In this document: positions 15,807-24,030 of the stretch, piece after piece | Numbering within the stretch: the first letter of the stretch is position 1 | Layout of the letters: every line of letters starts with the position of its first letter | Origin: Candidatus Saccharimonadota bacterium | Lineage (GTDB): Archaea > Nanobdellota > Nanobdellia > Pacearchaeales > GW2011-AR1 | Assembly (NCBI GenBank): GCA_041659445.1 | Contig: JBAZYG010000001.1 | Span: 300,001 to 332,000, forward strand | Length of the DNA stretch: 32,000 nucleotides | Direction of reading: 5' to 3' | The notes under the pieces: generated by a model | Told to the model about the DNA's origin: nothing | Seen by the model: the letters and a program-made list of their open reading frames with translations, nothing else | Databases searched by the model: none | Translations under genes and position numbers: made by a program

Positions 15807-16310
15807 TTAATGTCTTCCTTCTAAATCAAGGTATGCTTTTGCTTGTCCTAAGAATTCATCACATGCAGTTGCAACTTTTCCTTCAAATGTACTAATTCTG
15901 TCTGTAATTACCCATTTTTCATAAATTGCTCTTAAGAATTTTCTATATGCTGTTGTTTCAAATTTCCCATCATAGTCTCGAACAAGAATTCCTTTGATTG
16001 AAACTTCAACGCTTCCTTTGTTTGATTTTAACTTTACTCCGTCTTGATTCATCTCAACATCAACTAAACCAAGAATTCTGAATTTTACTTTTACATCTAT
16101 TTTAAAATAATCAGTATATTTTTTAGAACCTTCCCATTCAACGTCAATATCTTTGGAGTTTCCTTTTATTTTTTCCGAATATTTTGATTCAACTAAATCC
16201 AAACCTGTTTCTTGACTTAGCCATTCATAACAAAATTTATAAAAATCTTTGAATGAAAAAACGCCATCATACTTTACCTTACTCGAATAAATGTCTTGTT
16301 TTTCCGCCAT
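15807..16310 (-). CDS. Hypothetical protein (167 aa)
   Basis: Clean ORF, divergent from the thermosome gene. No motif recognised. Confidence 0.65.
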   Translation of the reverse strand: MAEKQDIYSSKVKYDGVFSFKDFYKFCYEWLSQETGLDLVESKYSEKIKGNSKDIDVEWEGSKKYTDYFKIDVKVKFRILGLVDVEMNQDGVKLKSNKGSVEVSIKGILVRDYDGKFETTAYRKFLRAIYEKWVITDRISTFEGKVATACDEFLGQAKAYLDLEGRH

Positions 16311-16440
16311 CTTTTATGTATTTAAGACAAAAATATTATTTAAATATTCTTCGGATTTGGAAAAATTTATAAATAGTTTGGAATTTGGGTTTTATTAGTG
16401 AGATACAATCCTAATATAGATTAATTTCATTACAACAATC

Positions 16441-16448
16441 TTTAAATA
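16441..16448 (+). promoter_or_regulatory. Proximal TATA box of the thermosome gene
   Basis: TTTAAATA starts 29 nt upstream of ATG 16470. Confidence 0.6.
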
Positions 16449-16469
16449 ATTACAGAATTATCTTAAAAC

Positions 16470-18089
16470 ATGGTGAAAAGTCCTGATTTATTTTCTGAAG
16501 ATATTTCTAGAATGATTGGTAGAGATGCACAACGAAATAATATTCTAGCTGCAAAAATGGTTGCAGACATAGTCAAAACAACTTTAGGTCCAAAGGGAAT
16601 GGACAAAATGCTGGTTTCTCCTACTAATGATATTATTATCACAAATGATGGCGTGACAATTTTAGATGAAATGCAAATTGAACATCCTGCTGCAAAAATG
16701 ATGGTTGAAATTGCTAAAACTCAAGAAAATGAAGTTGGAGATGGAACAACAACTGCAGTTATGCTCGCTGGAAAACTTTTGGAAAATGCAGAAAAACTTT
16801 TGGATTCAAAAATTCATCCAACAACAATTACTAAAGGTTATAATATTGCGCACGAAAAAGCTCAAGAAATTTTGAGAGATATTTCTTTAGAAATAAGTCC
16901 TGAAAACGACGCTGTTTTAAAACAAATTGCAATGACTGCTATGACTGGAAAAGGTGCAGAAAATTCCAAGGAAAAATTTGCAGAAATTATTGTCGAGGCT
17001 GTTAAAATGATTTCAGAAAATGGAAAGGTTGATTTGAATAATATTAAAATTGAAAAAATTATGGGAAATGGAATTAAAGATAGTGAATTAGTGAAAGGAA
17101 TTGTTTTAGATAAAGAAAGAATTTCTCAAGAAATGCCGAAGATGATTAATAATGCAAAAATTGCTTTGATTGATTTTCCTTTAGAAATAAAAAATCCAGA
17201 AATAGATACAAAAATTTCAATTTCAACTCCTCAGCAATTGCAAGATTTTATCGAAGAAGAAGAAAATTCAATCAGAACTATGGTTGAAAAAATTTTAGTT
17301 ACAAATGCAAATGTTTTGTTTTGTCAAAAAGGCATTGATGATTTTGCAAGTTATTTACTTTCTAAAGAAGGCGTTTATGCTTGTCGAAGAGTTTCAAAAA
17401 GTGACATGGAAAAATTAGCAAAAGCTACGAGTGGAAAAATTGTTAGTAATTTAAATGAATTATCGTCTAGGGATTTGGGTGAAGCAGATGTTGTTGAACA
17501 AATTAAAACGAAAAATGAAACTTTTAGTTATATTAAAGGATGCAAAAATCCAAAAGCTGTGACAATTCTTGTTCACGGCGGAACAGAACATGTTATTGAT
17601 GAAATTGAAAGAGCAATTATCGACGGGTTGGGTGATGTTGCTTCTGCAGTTGAAACTCGTTTAGTTGTTCCAGGAGGAGGAGCAATTGAAATTGAATTAT
17701 CAAGAAGATTAAAAGAATTTTCTCAAATGTTTCATGGAAGAGAACAATTAGCAATTTTTGAATTTGCAAATGCACTTGAATTTATTCCAATTACTCTAGC
17801 TGAAAATGCAGGACTTGATCCAATAGATATTTTAACTCAATTAAAAGCAAAACACGACGCAGGAGAAATGAATTTTGGATTAAATTTATTTACAAATTCT
17901 ATCGAGAACGCTTTGGGAGCAAAAATCATTGAACCATACAAAGTAAAAAGCCAAGCCTTGACTTCTGCTAGTGAAGTTGCAATTATGATTTTAAGAATCG
18001 ACGATGTTATTGCTTCAAAACCCAGTAAAAAAGGAAATATGAATCGTTCTGATTTTGGAAAAGGATTTGATATTGGAGGATTGGAATAA
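16470..18089 (+). CDS. ths: Thermosome subunit (group II chaperonin, Cpn60/TCP-1 family)
   Basis: [27 protein letters not shown] (ATP-binding) and VPGGGAIE motifs. 539 aa, typical length. Confidence 0.97.
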
Positions 18090-18532
18090 TGAAATTAGAA
18101 GAAATCAAATTTGGATATATTGATAGAAATGCAAATCCAAAAATTACAAAATTTGATAAAAAAAATTTAAAAAAAGAAGATAAATTTATACAAATAAAAA
18201 TTGAAGAAAATGAATATATCTTTGTTGGAGATCTTTATCATAGAAGAATTTTAAAAGAAGCTTTAGAATTTTTTGGAATAGAATATAAAACAAAATTTAA
18301 TAGAATGCATCAAGAAATGCCTTTAGGAATTGGAAATTCTTATCAAATAATTGGTGCTGGAAAAATAAAACTTTCAAATGAAAAATTAAAGTTTTATGAT
18401 GCTAGTTCAGATTATTTTGATTTAGTTAAGGGTGCAAATAAGCGAAATTTAGAAGATTTTTTTGGAAAAGTAAATGTGATTGACGAAAATGTTCTAGAAT
18501 ATCCTTCTTTTTTAGTAAATTTTAATATTTAA
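18089..18532 (+). CDS. Hypothetical protein, paralog 1; Janus/PHPT1-like motif pattern (putative phosphohistidine-phosphatase fold)
   Basis: The start overlaps the thermosome stop (TAATG), with GGAGGA 8 nt upstream. Motifs FIQIKI, LYHRRIL, YQIIGAGKIKL and FYDASSDYF are collinear with human PHPT1 FKYVLIRV, EYHADIY, ECLGGGRISH and VYGYSMAYG as I recall them. Confidence 0.6.
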   Translation: MKLEEIKFGYIDRNANPKITKFDKKNLKKEDKFIQIKIEENEYIFVGDLYHRRILKEALEFFGIEYKTKFNRMHQEMPLGIGNSYQIIGAGKIKLSNEKLKFYDASSDYFDLVKGANKRNLEDFFGKVNVIDENVLEYPSFLVNFNI

Positions 18533-18573
18533 ATCACAATAATACTTATAAATAGCTCTTTACAAAAAAAATT

Positions 18574-18972
18574 ATGGAATTAGAAGATAAATCCCAATTT
18601 GAACATAATTTTTTAGGTTTTGACATTAATGAACTGAGTCAGGATTTTATACAAATTTATATAAATAATTGTCCTTATTTTCAGTTTATACGAAGAGAAT
18701 CTATGGGTAGCGCAAAACATTCAGAAGCACTTGAAAAAATACTTGAAAAATTCAAAGTAAATTACAATAAAATAAGAATACATGGAAAAATGGTTCCTGA
18801 AAAAAATAAAGATGGCGAATATCAACTTGTAGGTGCTGGAAAGTGTTTTAAGATGGTTGATTATTTTGAATTTATTGGAAATAGCTCAGTTTATAATTGC
18901 GAACCAAACAAAAAACATTTTGATGAAACTAAAAAACCAGAAGGAATAAAATTTATTTGCCCAAAAGGTTGA
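18574..18972 (+). CDS. Hypothetical protein, paralog 2 of the Janus/PHPT1-like pair
   Basis: Shares FIQIYI, AKHSEAL, YQLVGAGKCFK and FIGNSSVYN with paralog 1. Own promoter: CAATAATACTTATAAA, with the TATA 29 nt upstream. Confidence 0.6.
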   Translation: MELEDKSQFEHNFLGFDINELSQDFIQIYINNCPYFQFIRRESMGSAKHSEALEKILEKFKVNYNKIRIHGKMVPEKNKDGEYQLVGAGKCFKMVDYFEFIGNSSVYNCEPNKKHFDETKKPEGIKFICPKG

Positions 18973-19011: not shown

Positions 19012-20139
19012 ATGAATTATCACATCATCCTAACAGAAAGATGCAATCTTAAATGTAAATATTGTTATGAAAAATCTATGAATGAATTTGATAATGGATT
19101 ACAAAAAAAATGGGATTATGATAATACTGTTCCTTTTGATTCTGAAGTTAAACCTGAAAATCTTAAAAATTTTTTAAAACCAGGAGATAGATTGATTTTT
19201 TATGGAGGAGAACCTTTGATTATGCTTGAAAAAATAAAAGAAATTATGGATTTTCTCAAGAATTCTAAAATTAAATTTTGTATTCAAACAAATGGCATGC
19301 TCTTGAATTTAATTCCAAAAGAATATTTAATAAAATTCGAAAAAATATTAATTTCTATTGATGGAGATGAAAAAACAGATAATGAGAATAAAGGAAAAAT
19401 ACATTATAATCAAGTTCTAAAAAATTTGCAAATAATTAGAGAAAATGGGTTTAAAGGAGAAATTGTTGCAAGAATGGTAATTTCTCCACCAAAATCTTTT
19501 GATGTTTACAATCAAGTTTTACATCTCGTGAATTTAATAAAAAAAAGATATTTAGATTCGATTCATTGGCAGATAGACGCAGGATTTTATAAAAATGATT
19601 TTAACGAAAAAGAATTTTCAAATTTTGTTAATAAATATAATCATGAAATTACTAGATTAATTAATTGGTGGATTAAAGAAATAAAAAACGGAAAAATTTG
19701 GAAATTATATCCTTTTTTAGGCATTCTAAATAGATTAATGAAATGGGATAAAGAAACTAAAATTCATTGTGGAGCAGGTTATGCGAATTATACTATAACT
19801 ACTTCTGGAAAAATTTCTGCTTGTCCAATTTTAAATTCAGTTAAAAACTTTTATTGTGGAGATTTGAACACACCTAAAGAAAAACTTAGGAAAATTTATT
19901 GTGAAGGAAATTGTTTGAATTGTAACTTCTCAAAAATTTGTGGAGGAAGATGTTTATATTGGAATTATTCTCGACTTTGGCCAAAAAAAGGGGATGAACT
20001 AATTTGTAAAACAATAAAGCATTTAATAAAAATTCTCGAGGACAAAATTCCAGAAATAGAAAAAATAATTCAAAAAAATATTTTTTCAGAAAAAGACTTT
20101 AAATATGAAAAATATTTTGGCCCAGAAATTATACCCTAG
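19012..20139 (+). CDS. Radical SAM enzyme with a C-terminal SPASM domain (putative peptide/protein-modifying maturase)
   Basis: CNLKCKYC matches the CxxxCxxC radical SAM cluster motif, and FYGGEPL is a SAM-binding motif. The C-terminus has C-x12-G-x4-C (CGAGYANYTITTSGKISAC), then CLNC-x5-C-x3-C (CLNCNFSKICGGRC) and a trailing Cys, giving the 7-Cys SPASM signature. Confidence 0.92.
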   Translation: MNYHIILTERCNLKCKYCYEKSMNEFDNGLQKKWDYDNTVPFDSEVKPENLKNFLKPGDRLIFYGGEPLIMLEKIKEIMDFLKNSKIKFCIQTNGMLLNLIPKEYLIKFEKILISIDGDEKTDNENKGKIHYNQVLKNLQIIRENGFKGEIVARMVISPPKSFDVYNQVLHLVNLIKKRYLDSIHWQIDAGFYKNDFNEKEFSNFVNKYNHEITRLINWWIKEIKNGKIWKLYPFLGILNRLMKWDKETKIHCGAGYANYTITTSGKISACPILNSVKNFYCGDLNTPKEKLRKIYCEGNCLNCNFSKICGGRCLYWNYSRLWPKKGDELICKTIKHLIKILEDKIPEIEKIIQKNIFSEKDFKYEKYFGPEIIP

Positions 20140-20178: not shown

Positions 20179-20421
20179 ATGGATTTAGAAAAAATAAAGG
20201 AAATTCCAGAAGAAAAATTAACAAAAATCTTGAGAGAAATAGACGAGAAAGTAACTGAAGCTATAGCAGAACAAGCACTTTATGCCGAAGGTTGGAGAGA
20301 TAGTTTATCAGAAGAAAGTTTAGATTTTTCTAAAGAATTTGATTTTTATAAACTAACAAATGCCGAAGCCCACCAAAAAATAATAGAAATAAAACAATAT
20401 ATTCGAAATGGATCAAAGTAA
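20179..20421 (+). CDS. Hypothetical small acidic protein
   Basis: 80-aa ORF. TTTATAAG at 20150-20157 is 29 nt upstream. Confidence 0.55.
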   Translation: MDLEKIKEIPEEKLTKILREIDEKVTEAIAEQALYAEGWRDSLSEESLDFSKEFDFYKLTNAEAHQKIIEIKQYIRNGSK

Positions 20422-20632
20422 AGAAAATAACTTAGATAACCTAATAATTTTGAAAAAAAGATTAGATGAAATTTTTATAGAAGGAGACGAACTTTCAAAT
20501 TGGAAACCTGGTTTGTCGCCAGAACAAAGAAAGATTGTTGAAATTTATGGTTGGGAAGACTTAAATAAATATAATTTATATTCTGAAATTTCAAAAGAAA
20601 TCTTAAAAGGACTCAAGCAAAAACATCCTTAA
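20408..20632 (+). CDS. Hypothetical small protein
   Basis: 74-aa ORF overlapping the upstream gene by 14 nt. Its 3' end overlaps the convergent TatD gene by 20 nt. Confidence 0.5.
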   Translation: MDQSKENNLDNLIILKKRLDEIFIEGDELSNWKPGLSPEQRKIVEIYGWEDLNKYNLYSEISKEILKGLKQKHP

Positions 20633-21350
20633 AATTTTTTTCTATTTGTTTTTCTACAAGCTCTTCAGAAGTTTTCCATATTTCTGAAATTTTTTTTATT
20701 GATTCTTTAATAAATGCAGACTGATTTTTCGTTTCCTTGTAAGGAGACAAAAACGGCGAATCAGTTTCTGTCAAAACTTTTTCTTTTGGAATTTCTAAAA
20801 TCATCTTTTGAAAATGTTCACTTCTTACAATATTTGTTGGAATTGAAAAATAGCATCCTAATTCCACTGCTTTTTTGACTAAATTAAAATTTCCTGAAAA
20901 ACAATGCAAAATTATTTTTAATGAAGAATATTCTTTTAAGATTTCCAAAACCTCTTTTTCTGCTTTTCTTGAATGTACTATCACTGGTAATCCATTCTCT
21001 CTTGCAATATTCAATTGAAATTTTAAAACTGATTCTTGAACTTTTTTATCTTTTCCTTCTTGAAAGTCCATACCAATTTCACCAATTGCAGTGATTGAAT
21101 TTTTGTGTTTTTCAAAAAAATCTTTGAAATTAAATAAATCATGTCTTGTAATCTTATCAGAAGGATATATTCCAATTGCCAATCGAACAATATCATAATT
21201 CTTCGCAATTTCAAGATTTTTTATACAAGAAATTAAATCAACTGAATTTGTAATTACGCTTGAAACATTTTCTTTCTCTGCATTTTTTATTAAATCAACT
21301 AATTCCTCTTTCTTAAAAAAATCTAAATGTGCATGAACATCGTATTTCAT
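20613..21350 (-). CDS. tatD: TatD-family metal-dependent hydrolase/DNase
   Basis: N-terminal DVHAHLDF (HxH). Later GEIGMD, VIVHSR and ILHCFSG motifs are typical of TatD amidohydrolase-fold nucleases. Confidence 0.9.
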   Translation of the reverse strand: MKYDVHAHLDFFKKEELVDLIKNAEKENVSSVITNSVDLISCIKNLEIAKNYDIVRLAIGIYPSDKITRHDLFNFKDFFEKHKNSITAIGEIGMDFQEGKDKKVQESVLKFQLNIARENGLPVIVHSRKAEKEVLEILKEYSSLKIILHCFSGNFNLVKKAVELGCYFSIPTNIVRSEHFQKMILEIPKEKVLTETDSPFLSPYKETKNQSAFIKESIKKISEIWKTSEELVEKQIEKNFKDVFA

Positions 21351-21351
21351 T

Positions 21352-22203
21352 TTAAATTAATGAAGCATAAAGCACACACCCTAAAATAATTAATGATAAA
21401 ATTATGCTTTTCCAATTTAATTTTTCTTTTAAGAAAATTACAGATGAAAAATAAATTAAAATTGGTCCTAACATCAACATTAAAGTTGTTGAAACAACTC
21501 CAATTTCAAGATATCCATAATAAAGAATTATTCTATATACTATCCAGATTATAGCGATTAAAAATATTTTAAGATTTAAACCACTATTTCCTTTTTGGAA
21601 TAATTTTGGTCTAAAAACTATAAACGTTAATATTCCAATTAAAATGCATCTTACAAAATAAAAAGTAATTGCAGAATAATAATCTAAAACTAGCCTTGAT
21701 AAAACTAATTCTAACGCAAATAATAAACTACCAAAAAGTGCAGCTAAAGATGCGGAACTAAATTGTAAATGATGTTTTTTAATATGAGCGAATACTAGGG
21801 CAACACCTGCAATTAACGCCGGAATTAATATTGAAGTCTTTGTTTCAAATATTGTTAATCCAATCAAACTAAATATAATTGAAAATAAAATAACAAAAAG
21901 AGGTTCAGTAATTCTTATTGGTTCTAATTTTGTTAAGGTTTCCTTTTTCAAAGAATAAAAAGTTAAGATATTTGCAAAAAAAGAAATTACAACAATAGCA
22001 AGCATTAAAAGAATGTTTTTTAATTGAAACGCTTCTGGTTTTGCATTCCAGAAAAAAAACACTAATGGAAGTAAAATTATAGAAATTGATAAAAAACTAA
22101 AAGTTTGAAAATGTTTTATGTTTACTTTTTTCTTTTTTAATAGGAATCTTTCAGCAACTGTTCCAGCAGCTAACGCAATTGCAGAAATTATAGGAATCCA
22201 CAT
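21352..22203 (-). CDS. EamA/DMT-superfamily transporter (about 10 TM)
   Basis: Roughly ten hydrophobic helices in two similar halves, each ending in an EamA-like FLKE/LKKE segment. Stop is 1 nt from the TatD start. Confidence 0.75.
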   Translation of the reverse strand: MWIPIISAIALAAGTVAERFLLKKKKVNIKHFQTFSFLSISIILLPLVFFFWNAKPEAFQLKNILLMLAIVVISFFANILTFYSLKKETLTKLEPIRITEPLFVILFSIIFSLIGLTIFETKTSILIPALIAGVALVFAHIKKHHLQFSSASLAALFGSLLFALELVLSRLVLDYYSAITFYFVRCILIGILTFIVFRPKLFQKGNSGLNLKIFLIAIIWIVYRIILYYGYLEIGVVSTTLMLMLGPILIYFSSVIFLKEKLNWKSIILSLIILGCVLYASLI

Positions 22204-22844: not shown

Positions 22845-22931
22845 TTTTAATAAAAATAAATTTCTTCTTAAAAGCAAATTACTTATTCAAAATAAAAAGA
22901 TTATTAAAATAAGATATATACTCTTTTTTGT

Positions 22932-23003
22932 GCGTGAGTAGTTCAGTGGTTAGAATATTTCGTTGCCAACGAAGTGACCCGGGTCCGAATCCCGGCTCGC
23001 GCA
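22932..23003 (+). tRNA. tRNA-Gly (GCC)
   Basis: Hand-folded. Acceptor GCGTGAG/CTCGCGC, D arm GTTC-AGTGGTTA-GAAT, anticodon arm TTTCG-TTGCCAA-CGAAG, T arm CCGGG-TCCGAAT-CCCGG, A73. 72 nt, no intron, no encoded CCA. Confidence 0.93.
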
Positions 23004-23009
23004 TTCTGT

Positions 23010-23226: not shown

Positions 23227-23297
23227 GGCCCGTTAGTCTAATGGCAGAACACTTCGTTTACACCGAAGAAGCGGAGGTCCGATTCCTCTACGGGCCA
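23227..23297 (+). tRNA. tRNA-Val (TAC)
   Basis: Hand-folded. Acceptor GGCCCGT/ACGGGCC, anticodon arm CTTCG-TTTACAC-CGAAG, T arm GGAGG-TCCGATT-CCTCT, A73. The D stem has one mismatch. 71 nt. Confidence 0.88.
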
Positions 23298-23969: not shown

Positions 23970-24030
23970 AGAAAAAATTTAATCCTCTGGGAGTAACAAG
24001 CTTTATAAATACAAATTAACAATTTTAATT

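Follow-up and report, generated by a model that had tools for sequence, protein, structure and literature searches.

A thermosome gene and a gene for a predicted PHPT1-like protein share a stop/start overlap in an archaeal genome

Introduction

Prefoldin and the phosducin-like proteins of eukaryotic CCT/TRiC are small partners of group II chaperonins, and to our knowledge archaeal thermosomes are usually described with prefoldin as their only partner. Gene linkage suggests that the small protein described here, sp1, may be another such partner. In neither sequence nor fold is it related to prefoldin or to the phosducin-like proteins and, unlike them, it represents a family of one Pacearchaeota-like clade that is dispensable in most relatives.

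In predicted structure, sp1 and its paralogue sp2 share the small α/β fold of human and animal PHPT1 (14 kDa; Janus/Ocnus family, PF05005; PDB 2NMM, 2HW4, 2AI6). The bacterial phosphohistidine phosphatase SixA is a possible prokaryotic functional analogue but its fold, that of the histidine phosphatase/PGM superfamily, is unrelated, and sequence and fold searches with sp1 and sp2 detected no similarity to it. In mammals, no dedicated phosphohistidine phosphatase other than PHPT1 is known; this protein is built of a β-sheet with a helix on each flank, two in all, and its catalytic set consists of K21, H53, R78, S94 and A96, of which Lys21, Arg78 and Ser94 anchor the substrate and bind phosphate (PMC4817053). 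In contrast to eukaryotic PHPT1, the sp1 family is archaeal (DPANN) and stands in a probable operon with a chaperonin gene.

Haloferax volcanii and E. coli both have gene pairs that are translated by termination-reinitiation (PMC6728339, PMC10666635). According to published experiments, overlaps of -1 and -4 nt couple translation tightly in archaea, and they are over-represented where the two genes encode subunits of a heteromeric complex (PMC6728339; PMC10666635). Such pairs are co-directional, overlap by -4 or -1 nt or are separated by a very short gap, and have no promoter for the downstream gene. The thermosome and sp1 genes likewise lie in the same direction and overlap by -1 nt (TAATG), and sp1 shows no promoter of its own.

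Results

Gene order and the thermosome/sp1 junction

The window, by which we mean the whole 32,000-nucleotide stretch of DNA analysed here, carries the features listed in Table 1. The thermosome assignment is secure: the open reading frame is matched by Pfam PF00118 (Cpn60_TCP1; E=2e-179, residues 31-517), by NCBIfam NF041082 (thermosome_alpha; 741.6 bits, cut-off 450) and, over its full length, by TIGR02339 (691.4 bits, above the curated cut-off of 671.1), and the protein is 55-74% identical to thermosomes from Pacearchaeota, Woesearchaeota and Nanoarchaeia MAGs.

Table 1. Features of the thermosome/sp1 region (positions within the window)
Feature	Position	Strand	Remarks
Putative BRE/TATA promoter of the thermosome-sp1 unit, ATTACAACAATCTTTAAATAAT	16429..16450	+	matrix score 8.3
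Thermosome (group II chaperonin) gene	16470..18089	+	539 aa, first cistron
GGAGGA, SD-like element inside the thermosome 3' end	18075..18080	+	seen in the sequence
TAATG stop/start overlap, thermosome/sp1	18087..18091	+	-1 nt
sp1	18089..18532	+	147 aa, second cistron, predicted PHPT1-like fold
Putative BRE/TATA promoter of sp2, CACAATAATACTTATAAATAGC	18535..18556	+	matrix score 17.9, highest of the region
sp2	18574..18972	+	132 aa, sp1 paralogue, own predicted promoter
Radical SAM/SPASM gene, TIGR04084 (AF0577 family, function unknown)	19012..20139	+	NCBIfam 272 bits, cut-off 225

The original prediction, that the thermosome gene is coupled through TAATG to the gene that follows it, is correct as to the junction itself, since A18089 belongs both to the thermosome TAA (18087-18089) and to the sp1 ATG (18089-18091). 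This is the earliest in-frame start of sp1, and the N-terminus that it specifies aligns with the MEKIKFGY of homologues. The GGAGGA that had been read as a Shine-Dalgarno element is also present, with 9 nt separating GGAGG from the sp1 ATG, and it doubles as the Gly-Gly codons of the thermosome C-terminal tail (...IGGLE). GGAGG occurs 28 times in 64 kb (both strands counted) and stands within 20 nt of the start of three of the 44 genes, where about 0.3 would be expected; none of the three has a -29 TATA box. As the element is not conserved at the same position in relatives, the conserved feature is the stop/start overlap and not the Shine-Dalgarno sequence. Because GGAGG is present in this genome, classical re-binding of ribosomes would look the same as reinitiation. 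Tight junctions are not peculiar to this pair: four other co-directional pairs in the window overlap by 4-14 nt and three further ones are separated by +1, +3 and +7 nt.

The earlier view that most genes of the window have their own leaderless promoter agrees with the finding that at least 23 of 44 genes carry a BRE/TATA element whose TATA begins 28-31 nt 5' of the ATG. The putative thermosome promoter follows this pattern, its TATA lying about 30 nt before the ATG as in other genes, which implies a leaderless mRNA. For sp1, a scan with a matrix built from 23 window promoters gave no score above 5.0 over the 250 nt at the 3' end of the thermosome gene, and there is no TATA at -29 from the sp1 ATG; it is the sole gene of the cluster without the TATA box that is typical of this genome. 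The candidate promoter of sp2 sits in the 41-nt spacer 3' of sp1, with its TATA beginning 29 nt before the sp2 ATG. A T-run lies at 18505-18514, inside sp1.

sp1 and sp2 resemble PHPT1 in predicted fold and in motifs

The two small proteins are 31% identical to each other (BLASTP E=3e-4), sp2 having four cysteines and sp1 none, and the sp1 family comprises 257 cluster representatives. Direct assignment of sp1 or sp2 to PHPT1 by sequence was rejected: Pfam gave no match to either, even at E≤10, searches of NCBIfam and of PDB sequences (phmmer) returned nothing significant, and BLASTP against human PHPT1 was non-significant (E=0.28). Thus no sequence model places sp1 or sp2 in the PHPT1/Janus-Ocnus family (PF05005). 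A word-based search with sp2 found no homologue, and a first scan of genome contigs with the pattern [LIF][YF]HR[RM]IL[KR]E[TA] found no match. Among 150 relatives, 10 match PF05005 (Ocnus) weakly (best E 0.0086); a family profile searched against PDB sequences has PHPT1 in all three top places (E about 0.1), and when hhalign aligns the 150-sequence profile with human PHPT1, 103 columns are covered at E=2e-4, with a probability of only 46%.

AF2 models of sp1 (pLDDT 88.8) and sp2 (pLDDT 90.5) both show the β-sheet and two flanking helices of the PHPT1 fold. In Foldseek searches of the PDB the top match of sp1 is human PHPT1 (2nmm_C; prob 0.93, TM 0.57, a modest E=0.28) and the top two matches of sp2 are both PHPT1 (prob 1.00, TM 0.64, E=0.04, again modest). 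The PHPT1 matches span 104-115 columns of the 106-residue chain and every other match has prob ≤0.12, so that human PHPT1 is the only credible PDB match for each of two independent models. The proteins differ from PHPT1 in their low identity (about 10-15%), with no significant Pfam match, in an extra β-hairpin after helix 1 and, in sp1-type proteins, in additional N- and C-terminal strands.

Conserved residues of sp1 are K32, Q35, H51, G89-A-G91-K92, S106 and Y109. By hhalign, K32 pairs with K21 of PHPT1, GAGK92 with G75-G-G77-R78, S106 with S94 and Y109 with Y97, and hmmsearch agrees for K32, GAGK and S106; counterparts of Lys21, Arg78 and Ser94 are therefore found by alignment in sp1, while sp2 has Asp at the Lys position. 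At the level of motifs, K21-Y-V-L of PHPT1 corresponds to KF(I/V)Q in the sp1 family, G-G-G-R78 to G-A-G-K, and Y-G-Y-S94-M-A-Y to (F/Y)-x-x-S-x-D-Y. Conservation among 150 sequences is high at K/R32 (125), Q35 (148), H51 (144), G89 (146), G91 (149), S106 (144) and Y109 (147), whereas the Arg78 equivalent, position 92, is K or R in only 69. In both models the near-invariant H51 begins helix 1, a place like that of His53 in PHPT1 (PMC4817053); this position is the only ground on which the two residues may be equivalent, and hhalign does not pair them. Besides the Asp at the Lys32 position, sp2 retains His49, GAGK, Ser104 and Tyr107. In the window sp1, Phe replaces the Arg that 100 of 150 relatives have (judged by eye, the counterpart of human Arg45, in a segment that hhalign leaves unaligned), and Asn replaces the His of 116; the protein thus lacks both an Arg45-like residue, unlike PHPT1, and the second conserved His of its own family, so its predicted activity may be altered.

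The PHPT1-like label given to these proteins by the original prediction therefore stands as regards fold and motif, but no sequence model gives it significance for the window proteins. The evidence supports remote homology only, and common descent of the sp1 family and PHPT1 appears probable to us. In this sense sp1 would represent the PHPT1/Janus fold in archaea, in divergent form, with a catalytic-site constellation of Lys, His, G-x-G-K/R and Ser, and the conserved residues of catalytic type point to an enzyme more than to a holdase or adaptor.

Linkage to the thermosome gene across genomes

In 19 of the 21 distinct genomic contexts of the family that were examined, the PHPT1-like gene adjoins a thermosome gene, 14 directly downstream and five directly upstream, the two exceptions (L097 and L101) being from other archaeal lineages. 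In 16 of these 19 the two genes are spaced by -11 to +8 nt: the downstream arrangement accounts for 12 of them (-1 to +8 nt; 14 cases in all) and the upstream one for four (-11 to 0 nt; five cases in all). Every sp1-type homologue found directly follows a thermosome gene (P0006 contig, L001-L005, L006/L007/P0024, L008 and L027), and when loci were chosen blind to context, by the peptide NYELVGAG alone, six of seven were thermosome-adjacent. The junction is again -1 nt in the P0024 contigs, 0 to +2 nt in nine further loci and +8 nt in one; overall, the thermosome/PHPT1-like junctions of relatives include -4, -1, 0, +1 and +2, as in coupled pairs. Distant short forms stand immediately 5' of the thermosome gene with ATGA or TAAATG junctions (L089, L090/091, L092/093, L095), and in L089, L090, L092 and L094 a TATA about 30 nt before the PHPT1-like ATG indicates that the thermosome gene is the second cistron. 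Several divergent subfamilies fill the thermosome-adjacent slot in different genomes. Wider spacers occur downstream in L004 (55 nt, with a TATA-like box) and L008 (49 nt) and upstream in L094 (57 nt), which argues that coupling is not obligatory.

The gene is patchily distributed. Only one of 80 species-representative genomes with a related (55-74% identical) thermosome has a PHPT1-like gene; in the other 79 there is none within 5 kb of the thermosome gene, and the thermosome therefore does not need it. Conservation of the gene order in related genomes, by which the original prediction was to be judged, holds strongly for the contexts of the family; taken literally, however, the refuting observation that the prediction named, absence of the adjacency, is what most relatives show. 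Rather than partnering thermosomes in general, the PHPT1-like gene is an accessory of a sub-lineage. The downstream carriers group together in one thermosome subclade, and much of the downstream arrangement could have been inherited from one ancestor. The thermosome tail ...KKGNMN...GLE was considered as a marker of carriers and discarded, as it is also found in the non-carriers L009, L029 and L023. With all HMMER filters off, no hidden family members were found among the proteins encoded immediately 3' of the thermosome gene in the non-carriers L012, L024, L028, L029 and L032.

The radical SAM neighbour

The product of the gene 3' of sp2 belongs to TIGR04084; its residues 11-18 read CNLKCKYC and supply the CxxxCxxC motif, and its C-terminus is rich in Cys. 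Genes of this kind lie 3' of the thermosome block in 11 loci, three of which (L009, L029, L030) are without a PHPT1-like gene. The protein also matches prokaryotic viperin models weakly, far below its TIGR04084 score.

Discussion

The observations reported here are, in our judgement, somewhat better explained than not by a bicistronic operon in which translational coupling ties synthesis of the chaperonin to that of a PHPT1-fold enzyme with which it works, and the original interpretation is to that extent partly supported. The parts of this explanation differ in strength. That thermosome and sp1 form an operon with translational coupling is very probable. The two genes would be transcribed as one bicistronic, probably leaderless mRNA from the TATA about 30 nt 5' of the thermosome ATG; ribosomes would end thermosome synthesis at the TAA and restart at the overlapping sp1 ATG by termination-reinitiation, probably helped in the window genome by the GGAGG 9 nt upstream. 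A shared transcript and reinitiation would mean that sp1 is made only when and where the thermosome is made. Stoichiometric co-expression, which had been proposed on the strength of the overlap, goes too far, because the overlap permits termination-reinitiation but does not set a 1:1 ratio.

Whether sp1 and the thermosome are functional partners, perhaps in contact with each other, is a question on which we regard the chances as even. As the original prediction had it, sp1 may be a co-factor, a regulator or an enzyme that modifies clients. If it is an enzyme, sp1 would most likely hydrolyse a phosphoramidate (P-N) bond, for example that of phospho-His or phospho-Lys. The family is kept on either side of the thermosome gene, which makes the thermosome or the proteins that it handles the most likely partner or substrate. 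A more ambitious proposal is that the PHPT1-like protein is a dedicated chaperonin accessory enzyme that strips P-N phosphoryl groups (phospho-His, phospho-Lys) off the thermosome or the proteins inside its cavity, that labile N-phosphorylation tunes chaperonin activity in these reduced-genome archaea, and that the PHPT1 fold is far older than its eukaryotic distribution suggests and was originally tied to protein folding; we consider this unlikely on present evidence, and the narrower idea that sp1 is a specific phospho-His phosphatase whose target is the thermosome is also doubtful, if anything slightly more so. Our literature searches on TIGR04084/AF0577, archaeal PHPT1, phosphohistidine with chaperonin, and DPANN thermosome operons found nothing relevant.

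The same gene order could arise from co-regulation only, with a stress or housekeeping enzyme profiting from the strong, probably heat-responsive promoter of the thermosome gene without contact with the chaperonin or its clients. We rate this as a real but lesser possibility. It would fit the 79 of 80 related genomes in which the thermosome works without a PHPT1-like gene, the strong promoter that the paralogue sp2 appears to have of its own, the spacers of L004 (with its TATA-like box), L008 and L094, the family members that stand alone in other lineages, and the many unrelated substrates of eukaryotic PHPT1 (PMC11277029). It does not readily explain why the neighbour in 19 of 21 contexts, on both sides, is the thermosome gene and no other highly expressed gene, nor the use of -1 and -4 overlaps, which are statistically enriched for complex subunits (PMC10666635); moreover, upstream copies stand between the promoter and an essential gene, a costly position unless joint dosage matters. 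Adjacency might instead record insertion history at an accessory-gene hot spot followed by vertical descent, with no functional meaning. The patchy distribution, the variable content 3' of the thermosome gene among close relatives, the radical SAM gene found in the same place without a PHPT1-like gene, the presence of one or two PHPT1-like copies per locus, whose fast divergence leaves 25-50% identity where the thermosome has 66-75%, the concentration of downstream carriers in one subclade and the L098 copy, which lacks the conserved His and Ser, would all be expected of such a site. Yet the gene occupies two positions, and several subfamilies keep junctions of ≤8 nt across deep divergence; upstream copies have taken the promoter over and overlap the thermosome start (ATGA); the catalytic motifs are under strong purifying selection; and PADLOC, PHROGs and BFVD are all negative for sp1 and sp2, giving no mobile-element, defence or viral signature, so that a defence or viral origin was rejected for them. 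A history of insertion and descent alone seems improbable to us.

It is also conceivable, though very improbable, that the radical SAM/SPASM enzyme has sp1 and sp2 as substrates or partners and that the thermosome is an incidental neighbour. The radical SAM gene lies within one or two genes in eight of 14 carrier loci with enough sequence, as against three of about 24 non-carriers, sp2 with its four Cys stands between sp1 and that gene, and the relatives of the enzyme about which most is known are peptide maturases. Six carriers, however, lack the gene (L001, L002, L027, L090, L095, L099), in L092 the thermosome gene separates it from the PHPT1-like gene, and sp1, without Cys and with a pLDDT of about 89, looks like a compact enzyme-like domain. 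The tight junction, too, is with the thermosome gene, the radical SAM side having spacers of 39-41 nt with promoters.

Returning to the coupled operon, a conserved, translationally coupled, enzyme-like partner of the thermosome would add something new to the biology of group II chaperonins, and the linkage, in a small group of tiny-genome archaea, points to a chaperonin partner or regulator. About 257 sequence clusters make up an archaeal family with the predicted PHPT1 fold and active-site residues, and this family also bears on the obscure deep origin of PHPT1. No Pfam or NCBIfam model names the small window proteins, and it is the gene neighbourhood that yields a testable hypothesis of function for thermosome and sp1. 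Both sp1 and sp2 are small and should express easily.

A one-nucleotide overlap in a leaderless context

The original prediction held that the thermosome gene is coupled by a TAATG junction, with GGAGGA as Shine-Dalgarno sequence, to a gene for a protein resembling the phosphohistidine phosphatase PHPT1 (here sp1), in a region of leaderless promoters. The ORF coordinates (see table) agree with the overlap and its upstream GGAGGA, which also forms Gly-Gly codons of the thermosome tail. The shared ATG is the first in-frame start of sp1, and homologues start at the equivalent place (MEKIKFGY alignment). The window has 27% G+C, and in it four other co-directional pairs overlap by 4-14 nt and three further pairs are spaced by +1 to +7 nt.

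At least 23 of the 44 window genes have the BRE/TATA consensus cAAtAAt.cTTTATAAAt and in these the TATA begins at a distance of 28-31 nt from the ATG, most often 29. Such spacing implies that most of the mRNAs are leaderless. This architecture is very regular, a further example lying at 24000-24021. No site of this type precedes sp1: throughout the final 250 nt of the thermosome gene, scores are no higher than 5.0, whereas true sites have a median of 12.6. GGAGG is rare (28 copies in 64 kb, both strands counted), and only three genes, none of them with a -29 TATA, have it within 20 nt of their start; chance alone would give about 0.3. These results confirm both the TAATG junction and its leaderless surroundings, with the double role of GGAGGA as Gly-Gly codons and the other close junctions of the window as caveats.

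Features in and around the thermosome block (window coordinates)
Feature	Position	Strand	Remarks
167-aa protein	15807-16310	-	
Thermosome BRE/TATA	16429-16450		same promoter type
Thermosome	16470-18089	+	539 aa; PF00118, E=2e-179; TIGR02339, 691 bits (cut-off 671)
GGAGGA, Shine-Dalgarno-like	18075-18080		within thermosome 3' end
Thermosome stop TAA	18087-18089		last A common to sp1 ATG (18089-18091)
sp1	18089-18532		147 aa
sp2 BRE/TATA	18535-18556		score 17.9, top of region
sp2	18574-18972		132 aa; follows sp1; sp1 paralogue (31% identity, E=3e-4)
Radical SAM/SPASM protein	19012-20139	+	TIGR04084 (AF0577), uncharacterised; just 3' of thermosome block
80-aa ORF	20179-20421	+	3' of radical SAM gene
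74-aa ORF	20408-20632	+	overlaps 80-aa ORF by 14 nt
TatD-family nuclease	20613-21350	-	TIGR00010, at cut-off
EamA-type transporter	21352-22203	-	1 nt from TatD-family gene
tRNA-Gly(GCC)	22931-23004	+	
tRNA-Val(TAC)	23227-23297	+	

PHPT1-like genes adjoin thermosome genes on either side

Every close homologue of sp1 lies directly 3' of a thermosome gene. The spacing is +1 nt in contig P0006 and loci L001, L027 and L003 (in the last from the real thermosome stop), +2 nt in L002, +8 nt in L005 and +49 nt in L008; L004 has a 55-nt spacer with a TATA-like box, and three contigs of P0024 share the -1 nt, TAATG-type overlap of the window. When loci were fetched blind to context, by the peptide NYELVGAG alone, six of seven adjoined a thermosome gene.

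The distant short forms of the family instead stand immediately 5' of the thermosome gene, through an ATGA overlap (L089, L090/091), a TAAATG junction (L092/093), an 11-nt overlap (L095, where the start of the copy is putative) or a 57-nt spacer (L094). In L089, L090, L092 and L094 it is the PHPT1-like ATG that the standard TATA box precedes, by about 30 nt, and the thermosome is the second cistron. The thermosome gene of L003 (598) has an in-frame TAA 20 codons ahead of the real stop and that of L094 (3811/3812) is in two ORFs; such interruptions reflect either errors in sequencing or genes in decay.

Of the 21 distinct contexts of the family that were tallied, 14 are downstream of a thermosome gene, five upstream and two unlinked. 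Both unlinked copies belong to other archaea and lie beside gyrB/gyrA (L097, 39% G+C) and a ParE toxin gene (L101, 44% G+C).

sp1 and sp2 are predicted to have a PHPT1-like fold

Searches of Pfam, NCBIfam, PADLOC, PHROGs and PDB sequences gave no match for either protein. Among 1.84 billion cluster representatives, a profile search recovered 257 relatives at E<=1e-3, mostly of 115-165 aa. AlphaFold2 models both proteins with confidence (pLDDT 88.8 for sp1, 90.5 for sp2), and the best Foldseek match of each in the PDB is human PHPT1 (2nmm; prob 0.93, TM 0.57, E 0.28 for sp1 and prob 1.00, TM 0.64, E 0.04 for sp2), the remaining matches being noise. Profile-level sequence evidence independently supports this match: a 150-sequence family profile aligned with human PHPT1 over 103 columns (E=2e-4), its best three matches among PDB sequences were all PHPT1 (E ~0.1), and 10 of the 150 members weakly matched Pfam Ocnus. 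Judged by the cut-off of the PF05005 model itself, the family is not a member of PF05005. We conclude that it forms a distant archaeal branch of the PHPT1/Janus fold, one not modelled before.

Residues that matter in PHPT1 are Lys21, His53, Ala54, Arg78, Ser94 and Ala96 (PMC4817053), His53 being the proposed general base (PMC11277029). Profile alignments pair K32 (sp1 numbering) with Lys21, G89-A-G91-K92 with G75-G-G77-Arg78, S106 with Ser94 and Y109 with Tyr97. Conservation among the 150 sequences is high at Q35 (148), H51 (144), G89 (146), G91 (149), S106 (144) and Y109 (147), with K/R32 in 125. Like His53, H51 is found at the N-terminus of helix 1, and we infer from secondary-structure order that the two are equivalent; hhalign mis-registers this segment. 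The family is probably catalytic. The window sp1 departs from the family twice (Phe for an Arg found in 100/150, Asn for a His found in 116/150), and sp2 lacks Lys at the K32-equivalent position. The copy at L098 4941-5423, +1 nt after a thermosome stop, lacks the conserved His and Ser (...AGPEDSSNLLENLL..., ...GGCEIYG...) and may be a catalytically dead variant, yet one retained beside the thermosome.

Probable coupling to the chaperonin and alternative explanations

In the best-supported reading, the thermosome and sp1 would be expressed from one leaderless bicistronic mRNA and joined by translational coupling at TAATG, and the Shine-Dalgarno-like GGAGG may add to sp1 initiation in the window genome. 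In archaea, genes with -1 and -4 overlaps are tightly coupled through termination-reinitiation, an effect that disappears once the spacer is about 20 nt long, and complex subunits are over-represented among such pairs (PMC6728339; PMC10666635). GGAGG at this junction is not conserved in the relatives examined, which suggests that the overlap, rather than GGAGG, is the selected feature. The coupling mechanism itself is ordinary; what appear to be new are the small proteins as a family and their dedicated tie to a group II chaperonin. In the literature that we searched, neither archaeal PHPT1 homologues nor a thermosome-PHPT1 operon nor a TIGR04084 function was described.

Linkage on both sides of the thermosome, maintained through rearrangement and at 25-50% protein identity, argues for selection on joint production of the small protein with the chaperonin. 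The product may act on the thermosome, on its clients, or merely share its regulation; that co-regulation is the whole of the relationship we consider rather unlikely. The 'stoichiometric' expression that had also been proposed is conjectural, since an overlap fixes no 1:1 ratio. A primary tie of the small proteins to the neighbouring TIGR04084 gene is highly improbable: that gene stands after the thermosome block in 11 loci, but six carriers of the PHPT1-like gene lack it and three non-carriers have it.

An explanation by inheritance combined with a variable hot spot of accessory genes is distinctly less likely than co-regulation.

In a tree of the small proteins, several divergent subfamilies hold the thermosome-adjacent slot in different genomes. 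Occurrence is patchy: of 80 species-representative genomes whose thermosomes are 55-74% identical, L027 alone has a family member within 5 kb, and small proteins 3' of the thermosome in other genomes are unrelated to the family (HMMER, filters off). In a neighbour-joining tree of thermosomes every carrier falls within one Pacearchaeota-like clade, downstream carriers forming a subclade that includes three non-carriers and upstream carriers being dispersed among about 17 non-carriers. The comparative linkage signal is robust and the hypothesis directly testable; the lineage to which the PHPT1-like gene is limited is narrow and uncultured, and the gene's function is one that we infer.

The thermosomes nearest to that of the window, at 55-74% identity, are from Pacearchaeota, Woesearchaeota and Nanoarchaeia MAGs (DPANN archaea). 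L035 (JAFCCB010000044.1), labelled 'Candidatus Dojkabacteria bacterium', has a Pacearchaeota-type thermosome (64% identity), and those of four 'uncultured Methanosarcinales' MAGs (L050, L066, L075, L087) group in the tree with Woesearchaeota/Nanoarchaeia-labelled MAGs; all five are probably mis-binned or mislabelled.

Other genes around the thermosome block

The TIGR04084 gene, found also at L005 3040-4164, L009 7335-8435, L030 6765-7892, L092 9054-10178 and L100 3828-4952, is a second recurrent thermosome neighbour without assigned function. The gene for the 167-aa protein, for which Pfam, NCBIfam, PHROGs, PADLOC and PDB sequences gave no match, accompanies the thermosome gene more constantly than the PHPT1-like gene does. 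It is conserved in most Pacearchaeota-clade loci (up to ~65% identity), mostly 0.1-4 kb 5' of the thermosome gene and usually on the opposite strand. The 80- and 74-aa ORFs have no database match and no Cys, the former with a -29 TATA. The two tRNA genes are the only Rfam/ARAGORN matches in the window. In relatives, the thermosome block is usually bounded by the EamA gene, in convergent orientation.
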